From the NCBI RefSeq assembly GCF_006345805.1, contig NC_042998.1, positions 146,072,001-146,136,000 on the forward strand: DNA of 64,000 nt, written 5' to 3'. The position numbers and the translations under genes are program-made. Below, one piece after another: positions 11,043 to 52,100 of the stretch. Source of the DNA: Octopus sinensis. Its lineage: Eukaryota. Numbering within the stretch: the stretch's first letter is position 1; every line of letters starts with the position of its first letter. Below the pieces are notes generated by a model that was given only the letters and a program-made list of their open reading frames with translations, searched no databases and was not told the origin of the DNA.

Positions 11043-14000
11043 CTGAAAAGAGAAGAAATAGCATTTGAAATATCAGGCAAAAAATTTTAAACAAATGTTA
11101 CAAAGGATTTTTCTATAAAAAAAAAAGGCAAGATTAATACTTACTACCACCATAATTATTCATACCGCCGCCACCTCCCATTCCTCCTCCACCCATTCCA
11201 CCTCCAATTCCTCCAAAGCGGCCACTGCCCATGGGGCCATCACCATAGCCACCACCAACACCACCACCATCACCACGGCCATCAGGAGTAGAGTTCAAGA
11301 AGAGCTCTATGTAACGATCCTCTAGAGAAAGAAAGAAAATGAATCAAAACATGAAATAAATATAGACATAAGTATTGTAAAATAAAGAATTAAACTTACG
11401 AATGTAATTTTTGTGTCTCTCCATGGAAGATACAGCATCCTGATGGGAACTGAAGTCAACATCTGCTTCTCCTGTTGGCCTGTTATTTCTATATTCAAAT
11501 TCTATCCTGATTGGGTCTAAAGGTCTGAAGAACTGCAAATAGGACAAAAGTTGACAAAAGTTTATTATGGCATGTACACACAATATGCATGTAAAACAAG
11601 ACCAATTTGAAAATATACTTACATCTCTAATATCCTGTTCAATTGCTTGGAATGGTAGACCTCTCATGTGTACAGAATGGCCAGATTTGCTGACATACAT
11701 ACTGCCAGGTGTTGCACCTTTTGGTCTTGCAAAAGATCCACCTTGTAATCGACCTCTGGTTTGAGGACGAAGATTTCCTCTTCTGTTGATACCACCAAAA
11801 CCCATGCCACCACCATAACCACCTCCATACTCATCATAGTCATCCTCAAAGAATCCTACAAAAACACATACAACCATAAATAAAAGCGGTCTAAGTTTAC
11901 ATACTTAAAAGAATCAAGATTTATGTTTATAAAACATGAAACACCCACCTTTAACATTTCTGCCACCTCTTCCTCGGCCATAACCACCAGCAGCAAAGCC
12001 ACCACCACCCATGGCATTCATACTGCCTCCAAAACGATCGTTTCTATCATAAGGACCAGGTCTGTTACCAGCCATGAATCCTAGATTACGTTGTCGCGGT
12101 GGTCCAACATTTGCATAAGCCTCTTGCAATGTACTAGGGAATATTTCAATATATCTAAAATAAGAGAAGAACAATATTAACACTGGCACAATGCTTAAAA
12201 ACATGAAAAGAATACATCCCCATTTATACACAGGATACTGAAATTTACGTCAAAGATAATACATCACAAGTTATTTACATTTCAGTATCCTGTGTATTAA
12301 ATAAAGGGGGGAAAAAATAAAGAAAACTGAAAAAACCCATTCACACATCATCTACACACTAGTCACTAGATTTAGCCAGGTTATGTTGCTACTGTAATAC
12401 TAAGTAGCTCATTCAGCCAAAACCCTTAACACTAGGGACATTTGAATGATCAAGCTTGAGAATTCATAACATTCAGAATTATTTTTTTGTCTTCCTTCTT
12501 TACCCAAGTTACATTACTTGAGGAATAACATCCACAGATCCCCACCAACCAAATAATACTACCTTCAAGCTTGATCAAATCAAAAACCCATATAAAGAAT
12601 ATCTAGTTTCAAACGAAAATACATGCACAAATGACAAACTATAATTTGAAATCTGTTACCGAAAAATACAAATTCAGAAATACTCCTGCAAGCTAAGGAG
12701 GAACCAGTCTCAAGTTTCACTTTATAAAGATTTCATGTATGTATTAAATATATCCATTAGAAAATTGCCAGTATTCACTAATACTCAAACAGGCCATAAA
12801 TTTAGCTAACAGAAAGTATACTAGTCTAGATGAATTTTATCCAATTCAAATTGCCCATTAAGTGAATTTTTCAAAAAAGCCTTATCTTAACCTTGGGCAA
12901 AAATAACTAAAGAATGGATCCAGGCCACTCACTAAATATAGGCTGAATGAGCTTTTACATATAAAATTACAATTTTTTTTTTTAATCTTAAAACAACCCT
13001 TCTTAACTCCAGTATAATTTATTTAAAATTTAATCTACAATGATGATTATACAAAAACAATTACAGAACTTTATAGAAAGAAAAAAAAAAACAAAATCAA
13101 AACACAGAAAAATGCTTTTCATAGAATTAATTATAAGAGAGGCACAATGTTAAGCCAACCAGATTTTACTTTGCGATAGAAAAGAATAATTTATTCTAAG
13201 AAAATTTTACATGAAAGAATATTTTTTTTAAAAAAAAAGCATTTTTCAAGTGTGCAAATTTATCCCAATATAAATTATTAAAAATTAAAAAAATTAATCC
13301 AGTCATTCAAACTCAGCACACAAACCAACAATAGATAAGCCCCAACAGGCCCATCCGTCCTCCCACCTGTGCCCCAGTCTTGCCATGTGTTTATCCAATG
13401 CTTTTTTGGCTATTTCTGGTGATGCATACTGTACATAGGCCTCCCCCGTGCTGCGCCCCTGTCGGTCCTCAGGTAGCATAATCCCATTGGGGACAATCTC
13501 CAGCCCTACACACCCGTCCCAATCAGAAAGACACATAATGAAGCAACAAGTGAAACTTATCATGCAAAAAATATTAAAAACCAATTTAAATTAAGATAAA
13601 AATATCAAAGTGCATACAAAAAAGTTAAATATTCAAAATACAAACATTATAATAAGGTGGGTTTTTTTAAAAAATACAAGCCCAACCTTTAAAATTCGAT
13701 CAACATTATTATTCTTCATAACTAATAAATTAGCAATTTAACATTTATAAACAATAAGATATAAATATATTTACAGTATTTAACAAGCTATTTCATTTAA
13801 AAACATTTTCTATATATCATTCCAATAAGCTAAGAAAACAGGAAGAAAGGACTAACTTGAAACAAATGAAAAAAATACAACTCAAGAGCCTTATAATTTT
13901 TATACAATCAAAATTGAAATTACAAAATTACATCAGCAGAACATTTACAATACAAATACATGGCAATATACAAACAAGATTAACAATTCAATATCTAAAA

Positions 14001-16609
14001 AGGTTCTTAATTTAGAAAATAGCAAAGTATACAAATTTTTCCCTATTAAAATATTACAGCTCTGTAACTAAGTACATATAATCAACAACCTACACAATCT
14101 CAAAAAAATTAAAAAAAGGACAGGGAAACTTACTACCAGCATCTGAAAAACGACAATTAAGGGGAGAATATATATACAGCTAAATATATAACATCTAACT
14201 ATATACATACACTATTTAGACTACAAACTTGACTACATATCTTTATAGAAATTATAAAGCAAAGGTAGAGACCAAGCTCCTCCAATAATTTCTTACACTG
14301 ATAATGCAGTATTTGTAGTCAGTCAGATACTGATTACAACTAAAAAGTCCATAAAAAAAAAAACTATTCAGTTGTAAAGAAAAAATCTTACCTGTGAAAA
14401 ATTGAGCAATCTCTTCTTTTGAACATCCAAATGGCAATCCTCTCATCCTTACCACAGCATCACTTTGACCAGTCACCTGACTGGATCCAGCTCGCTTGAT
14501 AACCCAATCCATCTCGCTTTTCTTAGATCTGAAGACTACAAACGGTTAGATTGAAAGCAATGTCGTTAGAAACCCAAATCCTTACTTTCCCCATTCCTAA
14601 ATCTCCACAAGAATTTACAGTAAATGTGAAGAATCATAGATCAATTTCAAAGATATGAAGAATGTAAAAAAGACATGGTTTTCTAGAAATACTAAAAAAC
14701 GAATTTATTTTACTATGGTGATGCTACAAACAAGATGTCCAGTATTTTGTCAATGATTCTAATTAAACATTCAGTTATGTCTGCTTCCCAGCCAAATGGT
14801 TTGAGGTTCATCCCATGGCATGGCACTTTGGCAAATGCCTACTATAGCCCCAGGGTGATGGAAGCCTTGAGTAGCTGTAAACTAGTGCCACTAATTTACA
14901 ATATTCTGTAAAAGTACATGTCTAACCACAGGGAAGTATCTTGCTTGGCAGCAAACAAAAGGGCATTCAGCCATAGAAATCTGCCTTGAAAAACAAGCAT
15001 AAAAAATGAAAACTAAACTTCAGATTAGAAACACAAATACATCCATGTAAGATCACATTAAAAGAAATTGCTGTCTTAGAGATACACCAACAATGACAAA
15101 CCTTTAAACTGCTGCCTCAATTGGAAGTATTTCATTCCTAATGTTGTGAAAACCTGTATCCATGGAGGAATAATACCTTGCCTTGAAATAGGTGAGGGTT
15201 GGCAACAGCAAGGGCATCTAGTTAAACATGCATCGAATTCCATGTGACTCATGAATGGAAGCTGGATACTAGCATTTCCCTTCCTGAAGTAAATATTTCA
15301 TTTCCGCTTCAGTACTTCAAGTAAACCATGCTTTTTTTTTTATACATTCCAATTATTTTCGAAATTGTGCCTTAATTTCCACATTTCCCAAATTTTTTAT
15401 ACCTTACCTTCAATGTATCTCTGACCCATATGAGCATTATTCTTTTTCAATGCCAGTTCCTTGTCCTCGTTACTGACAAACTCCACAAAAGCCTCACCAC
15501 TAGGTCGACCCTCTCTTGAATAAGTGAAGTGAACTCCCATTTCCTCACCATAAACTCGGCAACCTGTTGGAAATGGAAGGCAGATCCAAATAGACTCCCA
15601 CCATTTAAGATATTCAGCAAATCTCACAAAAAAAAAAAGTACATTTTTACAACTGCACCAACCTCCCTTTTCTACAGTTTTGATAGTTTCAAACAAACCT
15701 GACCATCAAAAATTTTTCACCTTTAAAGTGAGATCAATGTAACAGTAAAAATTTAACCCGTGTGGGAACTTACGTTTACCCTAAAATGTTTTTGCTGCTC
15801 TAAACCAGTGGTTCTCAACTGGGGATCTACAATAGTATTTTAAGGGCCCTTGAAAAAATTTTGCTGTAGCTGTATTGCCAGAAACGGCTGTGTTTCAGCC
15901 TACACAAGTTAATGTGAGGGGGGAAAAAAATAGGAATTTTGAAGAACGTTTCCACAAATGTCTGCGAATCTACCAGAATAAAATAGTAATCAAAGGGGTC
16001 CATAGATAAAAAATTATTGAGAACCCTTGCTTTAAACGAATCCGACCGTCAAAACCGTTCATTAGGTAAATTAATCCTTTAAATTAGATAGATATATAAA
16101 TTGATTAGGTAAATGTCCGACACTGGTGTCACAACAAATGTAGAAGATTTTTTTTTTCATTCTCGAGTTCAAGGACTCATAAAACCGGTTAGCCGGTTTC
16201 CATGACTTGAGTTCGCAACATTGCCTCTGAAATGGACGCCGGTCCGTTACATGGTTCAAAACCAGCTATTTTAAGTGGAGAGGATTAAGTCGATTTACAT
16301 CAACTCCAGTACTTTAGTACTCTTATCGATCCCGAAGGGATGAAAGGAAGAGCTAAGCTCGGCAAGATTTGAAAAAGCTACCGAGTACAGAAATGGCAGT
16401 AATTACATTGTTTTTGATGCGTTTTCCTTCTCTAGATAAATCACTGCCTCTAAAATTAAAAACGGATGTAATACTAAAAATTTCCAAGTTTTATAGTCCA
16501 AACCTTCAAAGAACTTGAGAACATCTGAGGCTGTGGCAGCCCATGGAAGACCACGGAGTCGCACAACACATCCCTCGTCGTCATTATGTTGATCTTGCTG
16601 CTGTTGCAT
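10947..16609 (-). CDS. HNRNPH1: hnRNP H/F family protein (glorund-like; 3 qRRMs plus Gly-rich domains): complement join(16504..16609,15408..15563,14392..14535,13367..13505,11949..12154,11623..11855,11400..11532,11145..11321,10947..11042); terminal exon/stop unresolved
   Basis: Nine GT/AG exons in consistent phase. qRRM signatures: VVRLRGLPW / [11 protein letters not shown] / MGQRYIEVF; [20 protein letters not shown] / GLEIVPNGI / [10 protein letters not shown] / LGHRYIEIF; [10 protein letters not shown] / [10 protein letters not shown] / [11 protein letters not shown]. Start context GTCACC-ATG. The symbol stands for the H/F family, not strict orthology to one vertebrate paralogue. Confidence 0.95.
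11145..11321 (-). CDS. HNRNPH1: hnRNP H/F exon, qRRM3 end and Gly-rich tail
   Basis: tttctctag acceptor, A|gtaagt donor, 177 nt; [15 protein letters not shown] followed by GGM/GGY repeats. Confidence 0.92.
11400..11532 (-). CDS. HNRNPH1: hnRNP H/F exon, qRRM3
   Basis: tttgcag acceptor, C|gtaagt donor, 133 nt. Confidence 0.93.
11623..11855 (-). CDS. HNRNPH1: hnRNP H/F exon, GYR linker and qRRM3 start
   Basis: ttttgtag acceptor, GAT|gtaagt donor, 233 nt. Confidence 0.93.
11949..12154 (-). CDS. HNRNPH1: hnRNP H/F exon (YIEIF...RPGPYDR...GRNVK)
   Basis: ttttag acceptor, AAAG|gtgggt donor, 206 nt; RPGPYDR PY-NLS-like motif. Confidence 0.93.
13367..13505 (-). CDS. HNRNPH1: hnRNP H/F 139-nt qRRM2 exon (GLEIVPNG...RLGHR), candidate regulated cassette exon
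   Basis: G-rich acceptor gggacgggtgtgtag, CAG|gtggga donor. Confidence 0.94.
14392..14535 (-). CDS. HNRNPH1: hnRNP H/F exon, qRRM1 end and qRRM2 start
   Basis: tttgtag acceptor, ACAG|gtaaga donor, 144 nt; [11 protein letters not shown]...AQFFT. Confidence 0.94.
15408..15563 (-). CDS. HNRNPH1: hnRNP H/F exon, qRRM1
   Basis: ttccaacag acceptor, GAAG|gtaagg donor, 156 nt. Confidence 0.94.
15806..16029. mobile_element. hAT (Charlie-type) MITE in an hnRNP H/F intron
   Basis: Ends CAGTGGTTCTCAA / TTGAGAACCCTTG; 8-bp TSD ctctaaac / ctttaaac. Confidence 0.8.
16504..16609 (-). CDS. HNRNPH1: hnRNP H/F first coding exon ([35 protein letters not shown])
   Basis: ATG at 16609, GAAG|gtttgg donor; upstream acceptor candidates at 16669-16670 and 16634-16635. 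Confidence 0.92.
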
Positions 16610-25905: not shown

Positions 25906-26884
25906 CCCTTTCGTTACCAAGCCGCCCGTATTTACCTATTCATATTTAAATGAGAATATCAGAGCAAATCTCTTTAGTACATTCGTGAAAACACGTGATT
26001 ATACTTCGTAAACAGTTCATCTATAGTTTTGTACAACAATCGACGTGTAATTTTAATTCCCTGAATTTTGGGAGATTTTTTTCGGCATCGATTTTTCTTC
26101 AACTTTGAAAATGGATAGGAGTTTCATGTTATCAAGCATTGATTCCAAATTGGAAAATTTGTGAAGCAAATACTGGGTACTGTTGTGGATTTAGTTTTTA
26201 TACAGGGAAACTAATGTTAGTCAGCATGGCTTAGTGTATGATGTGGTCTGGAAGTTATTGTTTGAAGCGATCGATGCGGAAACAAACAAAATGGGGGATC
26301 AAATTTTGGAAAATTTGTGAAGCAAATACTGGGTACTGAGTGGATTTAGTTTTTATACAGGGAAAATAATGTTAGTCAGCATGACCTAGGGAACGATGTG
26401 GTCTGGAATTTATCACTTCCATACCATAACCAGGGCCGTATATTATTTTTTGACCGATTTCTTTAGTTCGGTCAAACTTGTGATGGATTCCAGTATTTCA
26501 CTTTATTCCACCTTTATGGTACACCTGTTGTGCATTAAATTCAACTGATGATATAGTGATGTGCACAATTCTTCTTTATCAAAATTTTGTTGCATACCCA
26601 TTTGAATATTAGCTGATGATTCATTTTCTATGGTGATGTTTAAACAAAATTTTAATATTTTTACCTTTTGCTCAATTTACCTGTAATTAAAGTCACTTTG
26701 AGACAAAAGTTATGCAATAGAATTAAGAACCCTTTCTTTAATTATGTTCCAAATATCACATTAATATGTTAAGTAAAAAAAGTTACAGTTATTTAATGAA
26801 ACAATCCTAGATTCATGATTATTTTAGAATTTAATTGAAACTCATGAGGGGTGTATTTTGGTCAGAAATATAGTAACGAAAGGG
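25906..26884 (+). mobile_element. piggyBac internal-deletion derivative with intact ends
   Basis: TTAA-CCCTTTCGTTAC ... GTAACGAAAGGG-TTAA (12-bp TIR, TTAA TSD); remnant peptides [52 protein letters not shown]. Confidence 0.92.
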
Positions 26885-29800
26885 TTAAAGAATACTGTAA
26901 ACGACTTTGTAAGATCAACTATGAAGTTAAAAGCCATGTTCTAGGCCAAAACAGTCCTACTGTCACATAACCCAATCATAAAGAAATCTGAAGAAACAGA
27001 GGTTGTGCAGAAGGTCTGTTTTTAGAAGAAGGTGTGGGGAACAGGCTTTCTTTTGAACAGACAATAAAATCAGTGCAAATATGGAAGCTGTTGCTTTTGA
27101 AAGACTAATACAGATTTCAGTTAGATCATTGAATTTGCCTAAGCATGAATGAAGAATAGTGTATAACAAACTATTGTCCTAATCACTGGTAGAGAGACCT
27201 AGATGTGGGGCAATTTAACATGTGAAAATACAAAAGCAGCTCCACCTAAGTTTCCGCTACAAAAATCTGCAGCATTTCTTAGAGGTTCATGGTACAACTG
27301 ACTTCAGCAGTGCAGAACTGAAGAGACTGAAACTCATTCAATCAAGAGTTAGCTCTAATGAGCAGGATACATTGTTTGAATTGTGGGGATTTAAACAAAT
27401 CAATGCTGGTTACTGGGGAGGGGGCACAAGTACACATACACATGCAACAAGCTTCTTCAGTTTCCATTTCCCAAATTCACTCAGGCAAACAAGAGCTTTC
27501 ACATACCATGATAATGACTGTGTTGGTGATTCTAGAAGAGAATGCAGGAAATAACTTAGGATAACTACTATAGTTTTCCTTGTTACAAGGGAAACTATGG
27601 CAGAGAAACTTGTTAGTAGCCATAGAAACCATTCTAGTGGTGCAATCTGTCAAGAACTAATTCCTGTCAGTGCAGCTGTTTCCCCTGTGTTGAATATTTG
27701 ATTATAGATGATAGCTAAACCACTCACTATACTACTTACCAACAATAACGGGTGAAGTGTGACGTAGCAACAGCTGGACTTGGTGAACAATCATTGAACA
27801 ATTGGTCTTTTTTCACTTCTAATCTACTTTCTGTTTTAGAGGATGGTTTTAAAAGAAACTTACTGGTTTACTCTTCCATGAATTATTTATTTCGGTTGGC
27901 CCCTGATAGATGCTTTGTAGTAGTTAATTGATTACATGATTTTAATTTAAAATATTATTAAGGTTTAAGTGCCTTTCATTCCTTTACAGTTCAAGTTGTA
28001 GCCCATACCATCTCCATTTGAGTGAGATTTTATATCTAGTTTAAAACGAGAATCATTCTCAGTTTTTGTTCATCAGTCTTAACCACCAATGTTTTATATT
28101 TCCAGTTTCTAGTCACTTATTAGATATGTTCATTTCATTATTCATTCTCAATTGTTTAAACAAACCAGATGCATTTTTGTCTGATATTTATATCACATAT
28201 GTCTTCATTGTAGAAAGAGCATTTCACATCTAAATCTCTACTACTTTAATAAAAGTATTAGCTACATCTTTAGATTTAAAATAAAAAGCATGAACATGGC
28301 TGTATGGGTGCAGGTATGACTGTTAAGCTTAAGAATTTACTTCACAACCACGTGGTTTCAGGTTCAGTCTTGCTGCTTGGAACCCCAGGCCAACCATAGA
28401 TTTGGTAAATAAAAACTGAAATAATGTGTGTGTGTGAGAGAGACTATTTGTCTCTCCTTGTGACAATGTGCGGTAGCTGTTCAGACATGCAAGCAGTATC
28501 ATTCATTTCCAATCTTTAATAAAAACATTTAATATTATGGGAAATGTTACTTTATTTGAAAACAGCTGAGAGTTAGCAATAGGAAGGGCATTCACCCATA
28601 GAAAATTTGCATCAACAAATTCTATCTGACCTGTGTAAGCAAGAAAAAGTGGACATTATAACAGTGATTATGGTGAGTGATTGCCAGTGGAAGAGCATTC
28701 ACTTGACATTTACAAAAAGTTATTGATCAAAGATAATCTTAAAGAAATAAGACTGTTATAGTATGATTATTATAGAAATGTGATTTTTTTTACAGCTCTC
28801 TAAGATACCATATTATACTATAGCAAGATGTGCTTGAGGACTAAACCTTATTCTCCAACCTGAAATTCAGTGTTTAACAAAGCTTCATTAAAATGAGAAT
28901 ATAAGTTTAACTTTTTTTATACTAATGTACTTTCCCTGATATAAACTTCCTATTTTAAAGTGATCTAAATTAAAAATTTTCAACATTCATGTTAATTTAT
29001 ATTCCAAACACCTTTTTAATATTGACAAAGTAATTTTAACTAAATTGATTATTATTTTCACATGTCTTAATAAACGGGTTAAGTTCAAAAGACTGGTTTG
29101 ATGCTTAAATTACAAATTCTAAAATGTTAATCTTAGAAGTAGTTTAAGAAGCTGTAAGAATTTATATTTCATGTACATTTAGATTGGCTGTCAATGATAA
29201 GAGATCAGGCTATTTTCATAATACTCACTAATTATCTGTATAACTGTCAGAAACTCAACTAGCAATTAAGATAAAATAAATAGTTGGCATTTAGAGGTAT
29301 TTTTCTTTTTATGTTGATCTTGACAGTTTTTTTTTTTTTTCTCCCTATTTGAAAAATTATTTCAGATTTCCAACTATCTTGACATCAGATAAAATAGTTT
29401 TAAAATTTTTGTTTCCTTACTTCCTTGTTTAAATATATAGTTAAAATACAGAATATGTTTATATGGTTGTGTAGTTAAGAAGCACATAGTTTGGGGTTCA
29501 GTTCTACTGCATAGCAACTTGTGCATGTCTTTTACTATAGACCTGGGAAAACCAATGCCTTGCATATGAATTCAAGGGACAGAAAATGTATGGAGGCTTG
29601 TGTTTGTGGTTTGTTTGTTTGCTTATAACTTAGTGGTTTTGGGAAAGAAGCCAATAGAATAATTACCACACTTTTAAAAAGACATAAGTACGGGGTTGAT
29701 TTATTTGACTAAAACCTTTCTAGTTGGTGCCTCAGCATGGTCACAGTCTAATGACCAAAGCTAAAGCTAAAAATAGCACAGAATATTGGGTTCAAAACAC

Positions 29801-32559: not shown

Positions 32560-34110
32560 TACTATAGAAAAAAATAAATATGAGGGATAACTAGTTAGCA
32601 ACCTAGAAGAGGTGATTAGCAAAGGCATCGTGACCAATGTGCTTGCAGCAAAAACACCACTTCACCATTTCTTCAAGACGAAGCACAAAGGCTGTGTTGT
32701 AAAAGCTAAGGCCCAAGTGGTGGAGACGCAACATGGCAACAAACCAAGTTCCAAGCAGATGCATGCAGCACTTCAGGTGGCTGTTTGATGAAGGTGATGA
32801 GTTAACAATAACAAATTTTAGTTCATGCCTGGATAGCCTGCTGCAGCTCTCAGCAGCAGATGCAAGGCTCTGTAAAAGCCAATAACAGCCACTCAAATAT
32901 GGGAGCTAATGAGCAGTTGCATAAGTCTCAAATTTGCCCAGTTTGGATGGTCTACTTTATGAATTCTATAAATTCATGTGAGATTTGTTTGGCGGCTTCT
33001 TGGCTGACATCTACTGTAAGTAACAGCAGAATGGGAGAATTCCAAGTGCTGTTAGCCAGGGTCTAATAACACTGCGGAGGAAGGATACCAACAAAGGGAA
33101 CATGCTAGAAAATTTGCAGTCCATAACTATGCTAAACACAGAGTTTAATATTTTGGCCATGGTGTTAGTGAAACGGTTGGTGCTTGTCATTGATAGTCTG
33201 GTTGAGGAAGCACAAACTTGTGTGATTCCAAACTGGTCTATCAACGACAACTTCCACCTTATGCAATACATTGCAGAGAACTGGGATGGAAGTTGACTAC
33301 AGAAGGGTTATGGTCAATTTGGATCAATGAAAAGTATTCAATAGGGTCAACCATCATTACTTGGAAGCCGTCTTGAAATCGGCTAGGTTCAAACTGGTTT
33401 TCAGAGTTTGGGTTACTGCAATGCACAGCATTACCTGCTTTGGTCAAAGTAAACAGTCACCAACTGGAATCATTTCACATCGCATGCTCAGTCTTTCAGT
33501 CACTTCTTCTGTACATGCTGGCTCTCAAGCTACTGTCACAGATGTTGGAACAGTTGAGGTGCATTCCTTTCAAACTGGGACACATGAGAGCAGTGTCAGC
33601 ATATGCAGATGATGTCACCATCATGGTGGTGGACACCTCCAAAGTGGAGATGGTTAACACCATTCTAAAGGAATAGGAATTAGTGGCAGGAGCCAAAGTC
33701 AGTAGGCTTGCAACTGGGCACCTGGAGAGTCAGGCTGATGCCGTTGGACACTGGACTGACAAACCAGTTAAACTATTTGTCTGGTTCAGTTCTGACCTCC
33801 AGATGAACCAGAACTGGAGCGAGGTGATAAACAGGGTGGCCAGTCTTAAACAGAAATGGGCTGCGAAGTTGTCCCTGAAAGGTTGGGTAGAGATGGTGAC
33901 TGCCTACATTACTCCCAATATTATTTATCACCTGACCATCATGCCTTTCCCCAGGTACAAACGTCCGTTATTTATTTTCTTGTGGAAAGGTTGCATTCTA
34001 ATGGTCAGTCTGCTGCTAGCACCCTCTGCACAGCAGCTTAGGCATGTTGTGGCTTCTGATGTGCAGACAATGCTGTCATCATTAAACTTCTATCTGGAGC
34101 ATAAACTATG
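32560..34110 (+). mobile_element. Decayed L1/Tx1-clade LINE reverse transcriptase fragment
   Basis: Frameshifted RT motifs SITMLNTEFNILA..L..RL, EAQTCVIP..SINDN, LDQ.K.F.RV.H, SLLLYMLAL, VSAYADDVT, LSLKG. Confidence 0.88.
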
Positions 34111-35253
34111 AAATATTGAAGGAAGGTTTAAATTTAGAACACTTTAAAACAGATGGAAGGTTTTAATTTAGCTAACTTTAAAACAGTTTGTATCAAGAAA
34201 CCAAGGGCAGTCTCAGGTGGGTTGGTATCTTAAAAGATTAAGAAATGATATATCTTCATTAATAAATTTCTTTTGATGTGAAACATCACTTAGAAAGATG
34301 AAAATCTAACAGAAAATGGGTGAGTGAGAGAGAAATAAAAACATGTGGGAATTCCTAAGATACTAAAAGCAGTAAAATTGAAAACATTGAGGAATAGAAA
34401 ACTTCTAAAATAATATTACAAGGTCCAGTACACATTTTATGTAGAATCCTCTCTAAAAGTTCAATGTATAAAACATTAATGCAATAGAAGAAAAAATTAA
34501 TAATAATTTCTTTTATTTACCATGGGGGGGTTACATAATAATGAAATTATATATATAAAAAATGTTGAAAGTACACATGGTGTACAAGGAAGGGAAGTAT
34601 ATATATAGTATTCAACAGACATATGGTCCTCCTGATACAGGACAATTAAGGGCATCTGGCCATAAAAAATCTGCTTCCATCAACTGTCCAACCCATGTAA
34701 GCATAGAAGAGTGAATGTTAAGCTGATGATGATGGCAATGCTGATACAAGGATAGATTTCAAACTAACTCCAAAATTACTATATTAATTATTCATACACT
34801 TTATATTGTAAACTAATACTACTACTTTCATTATCATAACAAAGGTAATGTCAGATTGACCAGACATACCTGTCTTGCAATTGGCAACATAGACAACTGT
34901 TAAAACACCTAATGAACTATAGGTTCAAATGTTAGTGACGTCTGGAGATTAAGTTCTACTTGTGACTAATGTAACGGATGAAATTTACTTTTTGAATAGA
35001 CTTGCTGCTATAAATAATTATTGCCAACAAATCTAAGAGAAAACTGTATATTAAGTACTAACTGCTATTTTTTTGCCAAAATAGTTGTTTATAAGAAAAA
35101 ATATATGCCATGTCTTGGAATTATTTTATCCTAGCAAATATGAAACGTCTTATAATTTTTCATGATAAAATGATAGATGTTACTTTCCAAACCAGCTACT
35201 TGTGACTGGTATCAGCCAAGAAGGATGGCGCTATCAGCTCACTCCTACTCAGA

Positions 35254-41998: not shown

Positions 41999-44290
41999 CA
42001 GTGGTTCTTAACCTTTTTACTACGACACCTCCCCAAGGAATTTGTCCTTCTCTCCACGACCCCCTTGCATCAATGAATAAAATTCCCTCCTAGATTTTAA
42101 ATAAAATCTAAAATATGTTTTTAGTCTTTTTATTGAATATGAATTAGTTACATTATACAAAATATGTATAATTTTATATATAATCACATCATACAAAAAG
42201 TGAGATACTTGACACTTCCTCTTAGCTACAAGATCTTGAATGCCAGAGAGTGCACTACATAAGTATCTTTCAATGTTCAGCCTATTTCTGTACTTGGTCT
42301 TGACAGCAACAAGCATGAAATATGCAGCTTCACAAAGGTACTTGGATCCAAGCATAGCTAAAATCCAAAGAGCCTGATGTGAGATCAGAGGGTAAGCAGG
42401 AAGATACTTGATCCAGTTCTTTTAAGTCATCCTCAGGGGGGGGGGACTTCAACTCAAGAAACTCCTCTTGCACTTCATCCAAAACATCAGTTACTTCACA
42501 TCGAAATGGGTTCCTCATGAATTTCCAAGTTTCATGCTTTTCATCTATATCTAGGAAATATCTGATGAATTCTGTTTTCAAGTCACTTAGATGACTAATT
42601 ATTTGTTTCTTTAATTCAGAATCAGGGTTATCATGAATGAGAGCAGAATCCCAGTAACTAAAACTGGTTGTATTTCCCTGCTGAATTTGATATTTCAAGA
42701 GATCAAGTTTGGCCATGAAGGTTCGAATGGTGTAGTGGTGCATGAGAATGTTGATGCTTTTCTCTTGTAGTTTAAGGTCGAGAGAACACTGAGCGATGTC
42801 AGTCATTTTGTCACACTGGATGGCAAAAACAGGAGAATCTTTTACTTGGTTGGGTATTTGATCTTTGATGTCTTGAGATAAGTCGTTGATCCTTCCCTTG
42901 ACTGTATTGTTTGATAGTGAAATCTGGGAAAGCTTGTTTTATCTTTCTCCGGAACAAGTTCTGCTGCATGGAGTAGACTTGGTTTTATGAGAGACTCTGA
43001 TGTTATGGCTCTTCTTGCTCTTTGCAATCAACATGGCGATCTTGTAGGAAGCCTCAACAACCATTGAAGTTTGTTGCCAAAATGCTCCACTACTGTCCAA
43101 CATAGCTTGCTTCAAAGAATGCTTTAGGCTTGTCTGTAAGAGCAGGATGTGTTGTCCTCAAGTGGTATTCCAAGCGTGATGGTCACATTCCATCATTGCT
43201 CAAAGTTTTGTAACATATTACACACTGGGGGACTTCTGTGTCACCCTTTTGGAAGGACATGAATCCAAAGATAATTCTATTTCTGTCAAGATAATTCTGT
43301 TTCTTTGCATTCGTTGCAAATTATTTGATGTGCAGTGGACAGCACAAATATGTGAAAAAAAGATAAGGCACATGTAAGGTATTGTCAAGGCCCAAGTTAG
43401 AACGCTTATGTAAAATGCTCTGAAAAAAAATTAAAACAAAATAAAAATGGAATAAAAAGTTAAATTAAAAGAAAAGTTATATGAAAAGTTTGTACTATAA
43501 AATATTGTATTTATTTGTACAAAAATATAAAAAACGATTTTGCATAGCTTTTAGTTTTACCTGGTACTTTCTGTAATATATAAATCTGAATTTTAGTTTA
43601 ACATTTGGGTTTATATAATTTTTTTTGCTTATAAAAATATTTACTATATTTTTAACAGAAACATTTAATATTAAAAAAAAATTTTTATTTTTCCAATCTG
43701 TGCTTTAATTTTTTGAGACTATTAAATTAAGCGATAGTAGAACCTATTACATACTTGTTTTATTTCCTATTTTTGAATATATCATACTTTTCATTTTGCT
43801 AAAATTTTAAAATAGTTTTCAATTTTTTAAATTAAGTTAATATTTCTTAGTATGTTACTACAATGATTTAATAATGTTTTGGCATGTCTCTTGATTTTTA
43901 AGAATCACATTATTTCATATATATGAAAACTGTGGCTCAAACTTGTTCATAATCTAATAACTGAAAAAGACATATGTTTTTACACAATAATAATATCTAA
44001 GCTTTATACCAGGGTTTCTTAACCTGAGTCATGTAACAAAAAAATTACAAAATAAAAGCAAATGTTAAAGCTACAATTCAGAATTAGTGAGGGTTATGAA
44101 GCAGGGTCAATAGGTACAGAAAATGGTAAGCAGCAGTAAGATAGAATAAGAACTAAAAGTATAAGGCAATACTTTTGCATTTTTTTCATAAACTTCTCAT
44201 TATTTGACCATGCTATCATTAAGAGAATAACAAATATAATAGAGAAATTACTGAGGCTCCCCCCCCCCCCGCTTTCCCAGATAACCACTG
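41999..44290 (-). mobile_element. hAT (Charlie/Buster-like) DNA transposon with pseudogenised transposase
   Basis: TIR CAGTGGTT / AACCACTG; TSD gtctggag / gtct--ag; broken minus-strand ORFs (YLCEAAY...VKTKYRNRLNIE dimerisation motif, LKLQ, MRNPF, TSESLIKP). Confidence 0.9.
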
Positions 44291-46805
44291 GTCTAGTCAT
44301 GAAATTGCCTATAACTTGATACAGTTTACATAATTAGCAATCATCACTCTTTTAACATCCACTTTGTTGTGTTTGCATGGGCCAAATAAAATTCATAGAG
44401 GCAGATAGATTTTCTACTGTCAAATGCTCTTCTTGTCACCAACCCTCACCTACTTGAACACAAGGTAATATTTTCCCCAGTCATTCAAACATGAATAGCA
44501 CAATGGCCAGATGTTTACAGAGATGTTTACCAACAGATGTTGCTATTTGTATGATGATGGCTAGTACACAATATTAGGACAAGGACACACACACACATGT
44601 ACATTCATAGGACAAGGACACACACACACACACACATGTACATTCATATATATATATATATATATGGTAGGCTTCTTTCAATTTCCTTCTACCAAATTCA
44701 CTTACAAGGCTTTGGCTAGTCCCTGTAATGGCATCCAAGGTGCTGCACTGTTAGACTGAACTTGAAACCATGTAATTGCAAAGTAAACCTAACTACATAG
44801 CCATACCTATATCTAGCCTTGCTTGGAATAGAAATTTTGAAATATCCTGCTTGAAATTGCAAATTGATAAAGCTGAGAGGTGGTACCCCTTCAGTGGGAA
44901 GGAATGCACACCGGAAAACAATTTCAATATCTTTTCTTTTACTTGTTTCAGTCATTAGACTGTAGCTATGCTAAGGTACTGCCTTGAAAAAGTTTAGTTG
45001 TATGACTCGACCCAGTACTTTTATTATTTTTTTCTTTTCAAGCCTGGTACTTATTTTATCAGCCTATTTTTGCCAAAGCACTAAGTTATGAGGGCACAAA
45101 CACAACACCAGTTGTCAAATGTGGGGAACAACACACACACACACATACATACATACATATGTGTGTGTGTGTGTGTGTATATACACACACACACACACAA
45201 CAAGCTTTTAGTTTTTGTCTACAAAATCCACTCAAGGTTTTCATCAGCCCAAGGCTACAGTAGAAGATACTTGCCCATGTTAATAGAAGCCATGTCTAAT
45301 TTGGCAATTTTTTCAGTTTGGAAAACAACTAATTTTATCCTCTTATCCCCTCCTTTTGCATTAAACTTCAGTCTGGAGTCATAAAATGGCCTGTAACTTG
45401 ATACAGTTTACAAAATTAGCAACCATCATCAACACTCTTTTAACCTCCATTTTGTTGTGTTTGCATGGGCCAGGTAAAATTAATAGAAGCAGATTTTCTA
45501 CTGTCAGATGCTCTTGTCAGTGACACTGAACCTAGAACCACATGGTTGGGAAGCAAACTTCTTACCACGTAAATATGGTGCATTCCAAAATTCTGAGGCT
45601 GCTGTGAAAGAAGCTCAAAGACCTTTATCTGTGTTAATGTTAGATAAACTCTAAATGTAAAAAGCAAGGTGTTCATAAAAAAAAAGAAAAAACATTTGAA
45701 TCATGAGGAGTGAAAACAAGTTTAAGTAACTGCTGGAGAAAACTCAACCTGACTAAGATTTATTGTATGTGCAACATCAATTCCAAATATACAAAGTGAA
45801 TGTAATTGATCTGAAAAACTGACTGGTTAACAGGCTCATTGATTAGCGTATGACTATGTGATTGATGAGAATTTGTACTGGATGAAGAAATAGATTACAT
45901 ACAGATGAAGAGAGGACAAAGATAGATAGATGGATGATATCTAATGGTAAATCTTTATAGATGAAGGGACACAAGGCAGTGATGGACAGGGAAATACATT
46001 TATGCAAACCTGACTACACCAAACAAACCAGGTGGAGTGATGAATAGTAATTTTGTTGACACTTGATTATGTGAAGTACACTGGTTTAAGCTAGATATTC
46101 ATGAAGTATAGATATATTTTGTATTTTGAGTTGACCAAATAACATTAAAAAATTATTCATATTTTGGTTGTGAACTTTCATCCCTAATATATTTAATCAA
46201 AATCACCAAACTGGAAACAATTTTGTTACCATGTTTCTGGTAAAATACACTGCCTTTGTTTCAACTGATTTTGAAAATAATGAAAAATTTATTGCAATAA
46301 CTCTGGAATAAATCAAACATGAAATTTTGGTGGATAAATTTAATTTGCATCAGAGAACTCAAAACAGAAAATTTGTATCCTAGAACTAGGGACAATGTCA
46401 GATGGGTTGATACCAATAAGTTTGACATTCATTTTTATATACTTAGGGGATTTTTCAAGTTTAATAAATAACAACAGAAGTGGGTTTCTAGAAACTTTCT
46501 TCACTAATCTCAGCATAATTCTAATCAAACATTAACAATAACTTCTTTAGCTATATTTTATTAATGAGATAATCTTTATCATCTATTTTATTCCCATGCT
46601 GGAACTGGTTTATCTTATGGCAGTACTCTTACTGGATACCCTTCTTGTTTGTTTCCTGTCCATGTCTGATTTTCAAAGCAAGGTATTTTTATTCTGCTGG
46701 TTTTTACACATCAAAACTGCAGTGAAGGAAGGTCAACTGTCAATACTGGAAAACAAAATAGATCTATAAGATGAAATGCATTTATGTTAAAAGAATTTTC
46801 CTTTA

Positions 46806-47160
46806 TTCTTTTACTTGTTTCAGCTATTTGACTGCAGCCATGCTGGAGCACCGCCTTTAGTTAAGCAAATCGACCCCAGGACTTATTCTTTGTAAGTCTA
46901 GTACTTATTCTATTGGTCACTCTTACGGGGACGTAAACACACCAGCATCAGTTGTCTAGCAATGTTGGAAGGACAGGAAATGCATACATACATATATATA
47001 TAACAGGAATCTTTCAGTTTCCGTCTACCAAATCTACTCACAAGGCTTTGGTTGGCCCAAGGCTATAATAGAAGACACTTGCCCAAGGTGCCACGCAGTA
47101 GAACTGAACCCAAAATTATGTGGTTGGTAAGCAAGCTACTTACCTCAGCCACTTCTGTGC
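46806..47160 (-). mobile_element. SINE, same family as 61605-62002
   Basis: Reverse complement matches both head and tail. Confidence 0.85.
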
Positions 47161-47483
47161 CTTTATGTGCATTTATAAAGCAATGAAAAATTACTTAGTA
47201 CTGTCTATAAATTTATTTACACACACACACTTCAATACATTTTTGATACAATGCATATTCTTACTGAACACTATCATCGTAAATACCATTATCCTATCTA
47301 CATTTATGTGTAGTGAAAAATTGAGCCCATCTTATTATAACATGCAGTTATATAATCAAATATTGTTACATACAAAATGAAAGTAAAGCAAAGCAAGCTG
47401 ATATATAGATAGATATTTATTTAATAGCAATGTAATCTTAATATAATGTTAAAGCAATGACCAAACCTACACAAATGTGCCCC

Positions 47484-48148
47484 ACCAACTTTGTTTCTTC
47501 ATAACCTTCAGAAAAATTAATACTTTTTTATGAAATTTTCTGCAAAAGCATTTCATATGGTGTAGATTCTGATTACATCAGAACTTGGTGTGAAAAAATG
47601 TTTTTGGGTGTTGGGTTTGGTCAGAAAATTCAACCAAGTTGATTTTGCTTCCTGATAACTTTCAGGAAAATGAGTATTTTTAAATGAAATTTTCTACAAG
47701 TACCTTTCAAAGTGTGTAATTCACAATTGTATTGCAATTTGATAAAAGAAAAATGGTGAGCATGCACATGTACATATGGACATGCATCACAATATTTTTG
47801 GAAATTTCAAGTTTCATTTTGTAGATATGTAATGTGTGTCAGTATGTATGTGTGCTAGCCCACTATTTTTTTTTTTTTTTTTTTTTTTTCATATTAGATT
47901 CTGATAAAATCATAATTTACACACTGAAAGAAGGCATTTGTAGAAAATTTCACAAAAAAAAGGCCCTTTTTTCTGAAAGTTATTCAATAACAAAAAGTGG
48001 CTTGTGTAAACTTTCCAAAACTCCTACCCACGAATGGAAATTTTTCACAAATTCCAATGTAATGAGAATCTACACCATCTAAAGCATATTTTGTAGAAAA
48101 TGTCATTAAAAAGTATCCATTTTTCTGGAAGTTGTGAAGAAAGTTGGT
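47484..48148. mobile_element. Foldback/MITE-like element with long diverged inverted arms and internal subrepeats
   Basis: 47484-47620 pairs with 48035-48148 (e.g. atggtgtagattct / agaatctacaccat); second-tier repeats at 47655-47722 and 47913-47983. Confidence 0.7.
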
Positions 48149-48802
48149 ATGCCTAATAATGAAATACTAATTCTTAGTAGAACACTGACAAAGCATGCAG
48201 TAGTTCAGAATATAAAGATTAAAGCAAGCAGCCAGAAGATGAAGTATTGCAAAGCAATTGTTAACAAAACATGCGTTTAATATTAAAAAAAAAAGAATGA
48301 AGAATATTAACTGAAGAGCATGAAACCTAAGCTGTAATAGTTGTAGAGATATTCCAAAACAGAATGTTTGCGAAGTAGAAATTCAAACAACATGTTACTT
48401 GTGTTCACACATGCACATAAACTGTAATCCAGTCATGAACACTTGCTCCAGCTGGGTCCAGGGGTTACTGTGTGTCATTGTACAAGCATTACCAAAAGTT
48501 TGTAATGAACGTTTTTTTTTTTTTTTTATCTTGTTTTAGTCATGTTGGCTATGTTGGGACACCACCTTGAAGAATTTTTAATTGAATGAATTGGGGCCCC
48601 AGTACTTTTTTTTTCAAGCCTGGCATTTATTCTGTCAATCACTAAGTTATAGACATAATAAACAAACCAACACCAGTTGTCAAGCAGTGGTGGGGACAAA
48701 CACACGCACACACACACATATATAATTGTTAAAGAGGACAACAAACATTAAGGCAAGACAAACATCTCAAGTCATATATATTATTATTATTGGGAAAATA
48801 CA

Positions 48803-48858
48803 GTTTTACAGCTGTTTCTGGGATATCCCAGAGTATGGCATATTCCATCATCGGAGAC
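48803..48858 (-). ncRNA. Variant hammerhead motif (CCGATGA core), probably impaired
   Basis: Minus strand gtct-CCGATGA-tggaatatgccatactctgggatatccca-GAAA-cagctg-TA-aaac. Confidence 0.5.
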
Positions 48859-49114
48859 AAATAAGGAAAATGAGCAGGGTATAGATTAATGAAATGACGA
48901 CATAGAGGGCAAGAGAAAAGGAATGAGGAAATGAAAGAGAAGAGAGAAGCATAAAAGTTCAGTTCAACTTTCCAATTGTGTAAAAGTCCATAAATCCTTA
49001 GGTGTAATTCTGTGTAAATCCATGAACTGTGAACTTTTATGTTTCTCTCTTCTTTCTTTTCTCCTGCCCTCTATGTTGTCATTTCATTAATCTATACCCT
49101 TATTTTTCCTATTT

Positions 49115-49170
49115 GTTTCTGATGATGGAATATCTCATACTCTGGGATATCCCAGAAACAGCTGTAAGAC
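49115..49170 (+). ncRNA. Type I hammerhead ribozyme motif (minimal, Penelope/retrozyme type)
   Basis: gttt-CTGATGA-tggaatatctc(atactct)gggatatccca-GAAA-cagctg-TA-agac: complete core, stem II pairs at 10 of 11 positions, palindromic stem III, 4-bp stem I. Confidence 0.7.
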
Positions 49171-52100
49171 TTTGTATTTTTCCAATAATAACATATATGA
49201 CTTGAGATATTTGTCTTCCCTTAACGTTTGTTCTCCTCTTTAACAATTACATATCTGCTATATAGGATATCTACAGTGGCTCCATAACTACCATGTCAGC
49301 TATAACCCTGGAGCCCGAGTAATCTGTTACAACACTTACCTAGTGTACCTTGTCGTTTAGATAACCTGTGAACTAAACCCCCATATTTTGTTTATATATA
49401 ACAGGCTTCTTTCAGTTTTCACATACCAAATCCACTCACAAGGCTCTGGTCAGCCCAAAGCTACAGTAGAAGACTTGCCTAAGGTGCTATGCAGTGGGAT
49501 TGGGAAGCAAACTTCTTACCACACAACCATACTTGTACCTAAAGATATGGAGCCCGTCACAAATTTGGATGTCATCTTGGCGCAGGAACCATGCTAAAAT
49601 TGTGTGTGTGTGTATTTGTGTACACAACTGTTAGGATCTCTAGCACCACTTATATAAAAATACAACTGTTAATTTCTCTGCTTCATTAGTTTGGGATTGG
49701 CTTAGATTTTGTTTTTATTCTTTGTTTACTTTTGTGTTGAATTATTTTTATTGATCTTCATGTTTATTTAAACATTAACTTTATCTAAATTTACTACTTG
49801 TTCTTTGATAATATTAAAGCAAAAAATTAGTATTTTATTGAAGTCCCACAATTCATATTTAACCACTTCCATATTTGGACACAAGTAGGAACTGTGCATT
49901 TGTATTGTATATACTTAACAGCTACTCTTAAGTGTTTATCATACAGCTGTTCCAGCATTCCTGTTGTTTGTGACAATGATGAGAGATTGTTCAGTTTATT
50001 CAAATCATTTTCTAGTTACTGCTTATGACTCATTTTGTAATACTTAGTAAAATAAGATCTTTCAGGATATATTGTTTCATTTAGTAAATTGTATTTACAA
50101 CACATTTTAAAGAAAAATACTTCTCAGTCTCAAAAACAATATCCACCACGCTCCTCCTCCCTCCTCTTTTTTTAAAAACAGGAAGCAGTGTCATATGAAA
50201 TAGTATCATTGTTGGCAATCCAATAATTGCATTGTTCACAAAAACTAGCTATATCTAGTTTTCACAAGTTGCTCTAAATAATTTTTACTAATTACAAACA
50301 CAATTGTTTGAGGGAAGAAAATAAACAAATGCAATCTATAAAAAGAAAAAAAAAAGGCTAATGGAGCTTCTCAACAAACCAACTATCCTTCTCTCACTCA
50401 TATCATCATTTAACATTCTTGACTTATGCTGGAATGGTTTCAATGGCTGGATGCCCTTCCTAGCACTACATTACAGCATGTACTCAGTGCTTTTCTCAGC
50501 ATTGATGAGATTGCTATGCAGCTTGCAAGACAACAACTTCAAGAGAAGTGGCCTTATGTTAGATGAAGGGTTAAAATATAAAAGAAAGAACCAGAGCAGA
50601 GCAAGTTTCTTGCTGTAGGGAGGACCACATAGCTACTCACATTTTAGAGATGAAGGTGGGATCAGGGTGGAGTGTGGAAGATATAAAAATAATAGTGATG
50701 AGTTATCTGTCAACCCTTACAATAAACCCATGGTAAATTGAAGTGAATAGGGACTGAAGAACTGGAAATTTGGGTGGGTGGGTGGAGGTTGCAAGTATGT
50801 ATGGAAGGGTAAGAGATGGGAATGGGGGAGGCAGTGAATGAAGAACAAATGTTGACTGTATAATAAGTAGGGGAGCCAGGGAAGAGTAGGTGACAACTGC
50901 AGAGATTTAATTGGGTTCAGGGGTGGATAAGGGATGAAGTTTATGAGAGTGAAGATCAGCAGAATAGTGTTGATATTGTGGACAGATGAAAGGTAGAAAG
51001 ATGAGTGATTGAGTAGGCTGAAAAAGTGTAAGGGGGGAGAGAGAGAGAAGGGTAGGTGTAGTGCATGGGAATATTGAGAGATGTGTAATTGTAGAGAAGG
51101 TGAAATGATTTGGTAGCAGGGGAGATGCAATGTAAAATGTAGGCAGAGGACAGTATGAAGGATAGCTTTCAAGTGAAATGGTCCTGGATAGTGAGAAAGA
51201 TTGGTAGTATCAAGGAAAATCTGCAGCTAGAGAAATGATTGGTGGTGGTGGGAGTGTCTTGGAGATGGAATTGGCCAAAGGACCTAGTTCTGCTTATATC
51301 TCTCAATATAAAAGTATATCCTTAATCTCTCTGGGGAATGTTATATACTTACATTGTGAAACTTGTTTAGTAATAAAGTTAAAGGGTTTGGTCTATCTAG
51401 AAATGGATGTGTAATGTATCGTAAACTTACAAGAGGATAAGCTAAATGAAGATTAGCCAAATGGATATTTTGAAGTAATCAGAGGTATCAAGTGTTGCAC
51501 ATAACCACATCAGAGTAGAATCTACAGGAAGAGATAAGTAGATGAGTTAGCTAGTGAGTGTAACTGGTAAAGTTTTGAATAAAATCTGGTATTAGTAACC
51601 AAGAATGTGAAGAAATGAGAAAATGCCAACTAATATAATTATATTGAAATATTTCTCATCAGTCCTGTCAGAGAAATCCCTAGCATGAATGAGTCTGAGG
51701 GACTGTCTCTATCACATCATCTCACCATTTATCAGCTTTTATCATCTCTTTCATAAGGTCCAGCCTCCTTGAGATTAGCTTTCACCATTTCTTCTCATGA
51801 CTGCTTCCATTTGGATTACATCATACTTCATTTATCACTCATCTTCCTAATGTATTTCATGCTCATACCAGTACACTCCTCTGTTTTGCGCACTACATTT
51901 GTTTTCTCTCAATTCATTTGTGCTCTCTCATTGATACACACTAACAATACTCATTTAACAGAACTTGTTTACTTAGTTTCTTTTAAGGTATCACTGTCAT
52001 CCAAATTCAGTGTCCATTTCATTACCTTGAAAGGAGCAGTGAACCAAATTATTTTTGAGGCCTGTTCTTGAACCCTTTGGCTTGGGTGAATGAAGTATAG

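Follow-up and report, generated by a model that had tools for sequence, protein, structure and literature searches.

The ends of Penelope-like elements (PLEs) carry hammerhead ribozymes with a long helix II, a short helix I and a palindromic helix III, set between a U-rich 5' flank and an AU-rich 3' flank (PMC4209133). Pairs of minimal motifs on opposite strands, about 100-700 bp apart, were reported in 2014, the legend of Fig. S4A describes a 5'-truncated PLE with a second motif on the opposite strand, and decayed PLE ends of this sort number thousands per genome (PMC4209133). In insertions of endonuclease-positive (EN+) PLEs the 5' end is occupied by a 5'-truncated copy in inverted orientation, just one end bears a tail, of a published length of 30-40 nt, and microsatellites are favoured as targets (PMC8557442, PMC8969392). 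Here we describe a locus at 48725-49392 of a 64,000-nucleotide stretch of contig NC_042998.1 (hereafter the window), in which two oppositely oriented hammerhead motifs lie in the inverted arms of an insertion that splits a short interspersed element (SINE). Its layout is one already documented for truncated PLE insertions, and we consider it likely that the locus is the remnant of one such event.

The insertion process has been described for the PAc Poseidon element of Anolis. At AT-rich DNA the PLE protein cuts and extends the two strands, and two internal starts of the reverse transcriptase (RT) bracket the tail, 111-118 nt past the ATG at which stem II starts (PMC11167929). According to the same source, the hammerhead is protein-assisted, insertion in vitro does not require it, and its cut site coincides with no read ends. 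For the one S. mansoni motif tested, the monomer remained uncleaved and dimer cleavage was low (PMC4209133). A preprint derives animal retrozymes from PLE repeats and describes their solo monomers as common (bioRxiv 10.64898/2026.07.22.740005).

A pairwise alignment places the left arm at 48715-48966 (read on the minus strand) and the right arm at 49023-49257 (plus strand), with a spacer of exactly 56 bp (48967-49022) between them, in good agreement with the first-pass annotation of this stretch, which had estimated arms of about 240 bp and a spacer of about 56 bp. The arms are identical in 211 of 231 aligned columns (91%) and differ by indels of 15 nt and less; the 20 differences include 16 transitions and no compensatory stem change. 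In the ribozyme sense the arms point outward, and the copies are joined head-to-head at their 5' ends, which differ. The foldback noticed earlier is retained with corrected bounds, since the flanking SINE alignments set the insertion at 48725-49392 (668 bases), and with an extension that the annotation did not describe: the right copy runs about 135 nt past the end of the left copy, which has no tail. The two copies come from the same element end but are truncated at different points, and a symmetric foldback is the wrong description of the locus. Its features are as follows.

48505-48724, minus strand: 3' half of the host SINE, whose A-rich tail reads as a T-run on the plus strand and which ends in (CA)n/(TA)n; 5' boundary approximate
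48719-48724, no strand: left target junction TATATA, which may represent a target-site duplication and a microhomology to the end of the arm, ambiguous inside the microsatellite
48725-49022, minus strand: left inverted 5'-truncated copy (arm and, probably, the 56-bp spacer), from the arm alignment and the frame match to P0001, a protein discussed below
48803-48858, minus strand: left hammerhead motif with a U4C core, CCGATGA, from 48854 and H17 at 48807; predicted inactive
49023-49257, plus strand: right arm, with a pyrimidine-rich leader, the hammerhead motif and an AU-rich trailer
49115-49170, plus strand: right type I hammerhead motif with a canonical core; predicted cut after 49166
49141-49156, no strand: 16-bp perfect palindrome, with a left-arm counterpart at 48817-48832
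49258-49392, plus strand: one-sided 3' extension (tail) of about 135 nt, with weak hairpins and an AC-rich loop
49393-49543, minus strand: 5' half of the host SINE; its tRNA-like head lies near 49543, an A-box-like motif is kept and the B-box region is deleted

The proposal that the insertion splits a SINE at its (CA)/(TA) tract is borne out by the other copies of this SINE in the window: all six that were aligned are collinear with both halves, which stop at 48724 and restart at 49393, and the flanks thus continue across the insertion. Alignments of the 3' half to other copies end at 48698-48724, and one copy (46780-47200) assigns TATATA, at reference positions 216-221, to both halves; TATATA is found at both junctions of this AT-rich, microsatellite target. 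The 5' half is 74-84% identical to ten of ten window copies compared. Because the arms are 91% alike and the SINE only 74-84% like its kin, the foldback insertion is probably younger than its host. We take the host repeat to be an octopus SINE, an assignment that a search with an exon of the RRM-protein gene described below (eight matches) did not confirm, and its A-box and B-box labels are likewise our assumption. The window is AT-rich, and CpG-depleted except at 16-20 kb.

The right motif satisfies the hammerhead scheme (CUGANGA/GAAA/UH core, three helices, open helix I), from which the left motif deviates by U4C and a stem I mismatch. The right core consists of the stem I 5' strand (49115-49118), CTGATGA (49119-49125), stem II (49126-49154), GAAA (49155-49158), the 8-nt palindrome ACAGCTGT (49158-49165), H17 at A49166 and the stem I 3' strand (49167-49170). 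This layout agrees with the intact core, the cut after 49166 and the palindromic stem III that had been predicted from the sequence. Stem II has 12 bp with one A-C mismatch and a U-A closing pair, stem III has 2 bp with a palindromic AGCU loop, and stem I has 4 bp including a G-U pair. The stem II 3' strand (49143-49154) is self-complementary and the 5' strand is its near-copy, which makes twin palindromes; the 16-bp palindrome said to overlap stem II was located in both arms. The CCGATGA variant had also been correctly recognized on the other strand. In the left motif the second stem I pair is mismatched, which leaves a single core-adjacent pair, and stem II is weakened. The two motifs lie on opposite strands, 265 bp apart, and are a single motif duplicated, which does not amount to two ribozymes.

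Both strands of the window were scanned with a hammerhead descriptor. Two hammerhead-like sites, at 49119 (plus) and 48854 (minus), emerged under a filter that retained a site if its stem I had 3 or more pairs, if its stem III was palindromic or if it lay in the locus. With thresholds chosen after the motif had been seen, the strict descriptor was matched in 0 of 200 dinucleotide-shuffled windows, intermediate ones in 2 and 3 of 200 and the loose one in 17 of 200. A chance origin of the right motif is unlikely because the strict descriptor was absent from the shuffled controls.

The PLE-type type I hammerhead with palindromic stem III that the first-pass annotation had seen, in an inverted arrangement at a microsatellite, matches the elements described in PMC4209133 and PMC8557442. 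The locus is like the inverted pseudo-long terminal repeat (pLTR) insertions of EN+ PLEs from the Penelope/Poseidon, Neptune, Nematis and Hydra clades (PMC8557442, Fig. 2 legend; PMC8969392), since an inverted 5'-truncated copy is joined at the 5' end, the extension is present at one end, the target is a microsatellite or AT-rich and a hammerhead lies in the repeat. Naiad and Chlamys PLEs also use (TA)n targets, but are described as devoid of canonical hammerheads. Among the motifs of PMC4209133 Fig. S3, the variants from D. willistoni, Saccoglossus(2) and Aedes have, as here, the CUGAUGAU core, a long helix II, a 4-bp helix I and a cut after A; the D. willistoni row also has the palindromic loop 3 AGCU, and the U-rich 5' and AU-rich 3' flanks recur in these variants. 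An opposite-strand partner within 100-700 bp is also seen in the dual minimal hammerheads of S. mansoni and Cotesia. In contrast to the PLE hammerheads of Fig. S3, the 12-bp stem II is built from two near-identical self-complementary 12-mers, and one copy carries U4C. In PAc Poseidon (PMC11167929), too, stem II begins with an ATG, the element ends a little more than 100 nt downstream and the target is AT-rich; here the ATG that opens stem II lies at 49125, about 125-130 nt before the end of the short arm. Unlike in PAc Poseidon, the frame is stopped in both arms, no protein homologue was found and the tail is longer.

Metazoan non-LTR retrozymes (PMC7761336; bioRxiv 10.64898/2026.07.22.740005) resemble the locus in being non-coding, a few hundred bp long and probably of PLE origin, with a type I hammerhead. 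Retrozymes, however, are head-to-tail arrays that give unit-length circles, whereas no tandem copy is present here and the two motifs occupy opposite strands. A retrozyme was rejected on the absence of head-to-tail, same-strand hammerheads in the window, where the tandem array envisaged by the first-pass annotation was also not found.

In the most likely mechanism, reverse transcription was primed twice by a PLE protein at a nicked (TA) tract, from the tail end and from an internal site, and the resulting short cDNAs were joined head-to-head. In this mechanism the RT/GIY-YIG protein would nick both strands of the AT-rich target; one priming would take place at the far tail end (49392), and the other internally at about 49250-49254, where the element sequence, TTACATAT, resembles that of the target. 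Joining would be through the 5' ends of the cDNAs. The hammerhead of the parent element would have acted through cleavage of tandem dimers via the palindromic stem III, or with the assistance of protein. From the anatomy seen (arms, duplicated motif, extension, SINE split, AT-rich junctions and lesions) we infer the enzyme, the priming and the present inactivity. The locus departs from the published type in its long tail, in the twin palindromes and U-A closure of stem II and, possibly, in a family-level U4C.

Several results weigh against this mechanism. No RT or GIY-YIG domain was matched in Pfam by any of the 175 stop-to-stop frames of at least 62 aa in the window, so the linkage to RT and GIY-YIG reading frames suggested earlier was not seen; a truncated copy would be expected to lack them. 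The parent protein was also sought directly: the arm/spacer frame matched no long protein (a single, apparently spurious open reading frame in one search, described below as P0001, and nothing in a second), and the tail, with one of three forward frames tried, gave three candidates, none at E<=1. The last two negatives are weak, given word-based sensitivity and the single tail frame. The frame of the stem II ATG is closed by a TAA common to both arms. With no remaining reading frame, the locus differs from the inverted-pLTR EN+ PLEs and its clade is unassignable, and its extension of about 135 nt compares with 30-40 nt in theirs. At the closing pair of stem II the consensus is G-C (PMC4209133), but the locus has U-A or, alternatively, an additional A preceding GAAA. 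Finally, the hammerhead-model search that had been suggested came out negative: Rfam gave no hammerhead at the gathering score and none among 18 matches at E<=10. The Rfam hammerhead models may miss PLE variants. The miRNA-family matches that Rfam gave at the locus are far below the gathering score and reflect the long hairpin only. Because no RT/GIY-YIG coding link was found, the putative PLE membership is drawn from structure.

A relative of the element was recovered at the protein level. The minus-strand frame 48732-49070, searched as a profile against 1.84 billion proteins, returned one match, P0001 (E 6e-8), an unnamed singleton that reads like a spurious open reading frame over a related copy. 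It aligns in one minus-strand frame through spacer, arm and motif, strongly in the arm and weakly in the spacer, and requires at least 17 base changes in 108 relative to the arm. P0001 indicates that the family exists elsewhere, and because it spans spacer, arm and motif, the spacer is probably the upstream continuation of the left copy. Comparison of core and stems among the two arms and this one protein-level copy revealed no compensatory change, and P0001 implies further changes in the core. The spacer was rejected as a GIY-YIG C-terminus; its likeness is a TPK-like tripeptide over fewer than 20 codons. Within the window, blastn found neither a second copy of the foldback nor another match to the tail. 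Seven of eight locus motifs had no match in the supplement of PMC8557442; the eighth, CTGATGATGG, matched two Naiad sequences in an unrelated context. A blastn search of a phage collection with the locus gave no match, and a sigma-70 scan, irrelevant for a eukaryote, was at chance level. No published description of this particular family was found in the literature searched, which was mostly open-access and did not extend to Repbase or Dfam.

The evidence on the ancestral state of core position 4 points both ways. P0001 has proline at the core codon, which implies C4 in common with the left arm, and each of the three CpG sites in the arms is TpG in the opposite arm, in a region where CpG is depleted; both observations counter the right core as the ancestral state. 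The published PLE hammerheads point the opposite way, with C4 in 0 of the 56 rows of Fig. S3 (PMC4209133). The U4C change is reported to be impaired in vitro yet viable in a viroid (PMC3088659). A bolder reading, which we think improbable, is that the parent was an undescribed PLE-derived family with a structured tail of about 135 nt and a ribozyme with a native U4C core and a twin-palindrome stem II, by which it would pair and cleave between molecules; the seemingly intact right core would then be a reversion by CpG decay, and such foldbacks would be self-silencing sources of double-stranded RNA (dsRNA).

We used nearest-neighbour predictions, which model neither tertiary contacts nor help from proteins, to compare the folds. 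The right monomer has an active-type fold at -7.0 kcal/mol and a minimum-energy rod at -16.4 kcal/mol; in the rod, the stem I 5' strand and CUG pair with the GAAA side and bury the core, and the active-type fold has a predicted probability of about 1e-7. The core-burying rod is still predicted for an RNA starting at the spacer. Both copies look damaged, by different lesions, and the locus is probably inactive now. Positions 48700-49400 fold at -338.4 kcal/mol (z -27, equalled in 0 of 20 shuffles), and the tail at -25.2 kcal/mol, a value without a shuffle control. If the locus is transcribed, the long hairpin is thermodynamically certain according to the model: in read-through RNA the unpaired probability is 0.0 at 11 of 11 core positions on the plus strand and 10 of 11 on the minus strand, and the two strands fold about equally (-312 and -318 kcal/mol), with uninterrupted duplex runs of 16-36 bp (plus) and 21-33 bp (minus). 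The earlier suggestion that the hairpin sequesters the ribozyme accordingly holds as a matter of thermodynamics. Selection for a bias of the arm differences toward G-U wobble is not supported, as both strands fold about alike. The partner copy is antisense, so that a duplex of about 230 bp would arise in read-through RNA from either strand and bury the core; ADAR or Dicer processing, if any, would be a by-product. The hairpin could serve as an ADAR/Dicer-type substrate only if transcribed, an idea generic for inverted repeats (PMC5625713). Because the motifs lie on opposite strands, no single transcript has two sense motifs and the dimer mechanism is unavailable in cis. Thus, of the dimer cleavage invoked by the first-pass annotation, the palindromic stem III architecture is present and a double hammerhead within one RNA is rejected.

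Four other histories of the locus were weighed against the double-priming mechanism. The first, in our view an unlikely one, starts from a single hammerhead copy (a PLE end or a solo non-LTR retrozyme) that was later duplicated in inverted orientation at the DNA level, for example by a template switch in replication. The single extension and the several indels between the arms suit it, as does the frequency of solo, PLE-derived retrozyme monomers noted above. However, the inverted copy does not run past the SINE boundary and brings no flanking SINE with it other than a short TA/CA-like overlap, and the spacer is apparently element sequence missing from the right copy, which copying of the right arm cannot supply.

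Slightly less credible still is a non-autonomous element that would amplify as the complete 668-bp foldback, in which the antisense arm would keep the ribozyme switched off. The unit is compact, with a possible TATATA duplication, complete predicted sequestration and an unusually long tail, yet it has no second copy in 64 kb, its arms are 9% diverged with indels and no compensatory change, and an RNA locked in a hairpin of -312 kcal/mol would be a poor retroelement template.

A miniature inverted-repeat transposable element (MITE) or foldback DNA transposon at a TA site, with a chance likeness to a hammerhead, is very improbable. A long inverted repeat does lie at a TA site, the motif matches no Rfam hammerhead and loose descriptors are met by chance in shuffled windows, and a palindromic repeat adjoins the locus. 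This second repeat (47494-48142) is older, 67% self-complementary over 683 columns, contains direct repeats of about 154 bp and is itself MITE- or foldback-like. Against such an origin of the locus, the right arm stops 135 nt short of the insertion boundary, so that its repeats are not terminal and the candidate was rejected; the strict descriptor was matched in none of the 200 shuffled windows, and both the palindromic stem III and the base composition of the flanks agree with the PLE consensus (PMC4209133). Least probable is adoption of the hairpin by the host as functional dsRNA (an editing substrate or a source of small interfering RNA), for which the predicted duplex runs and the heavy editing of palindromic repeats and lizard Penelope copies (PMC5625713) speak, but the sole CpG-rich promoter-like region (16-20 kb) is about 29 kb away beside exons running the opposite way, and the arm divergence looks neutral.

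As the likely remnant of a doubly primed insertion, the locus is one more decayed PLE end, yet a tidy example of the footprint of an inverted copy plus tail. It also provides a probe for an apparently uncatalogued family, and its end points bear on whether the two-site internal priming of the anole element also accounts for inverted insertions. The base at core position 4 across the family bears likewise on the tolerance of a PLE lineage for a weakened ribozyme. Should the host be a coleoid cephalopod, foldbacks of this sort might contribute to its abundant edited dsRNA. The host SINE family is dense, with more than 12 partial or full copies in 64 kb, many of them oppositely oriented within 1-2 kb, and these represent further potential dsRNA.

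Adjoining the host SINE, a sequence at 49541-49600 (minus strand) resembles the 3' half of U6 snRNA (Rfam, 36.7 bits, E 3e-7, below the gathering score of 44). Its 3' end abuts the SINE head on the same strand, an arrangement seen in none of five other SINE heads compared, and the two may form a U6-SINE chimeric retrocopy or a stacked insertion. Chimeras of U6 and LINE-1 are known (PMC6789731).

Elsewhere in the window, exons of a protein with RNA recognition motifs (RRM_1 Pfam matches) and Gly-rich stretches lie at 11344-15705 on the minus strand, adjoining the CpG-rich probable promoter region at 16-20 kb; we take this protein to be hnRNP F/H-like. Two frames with no Pfam match presumably derive from mobile elements: a 202-aa frame at 42330-42938 (minus) resembles a decayed hAT/SPIN-type transposase fragment, and a 144-aa frame at 33677-34111 (plus) resembles the region downstream of a Tx1/L1-type non-LTR RT. 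A dispersed repeat of about 600 bp is present twice (7148-7715 and 26280-26892), in opposite orientations and with 86% identity.

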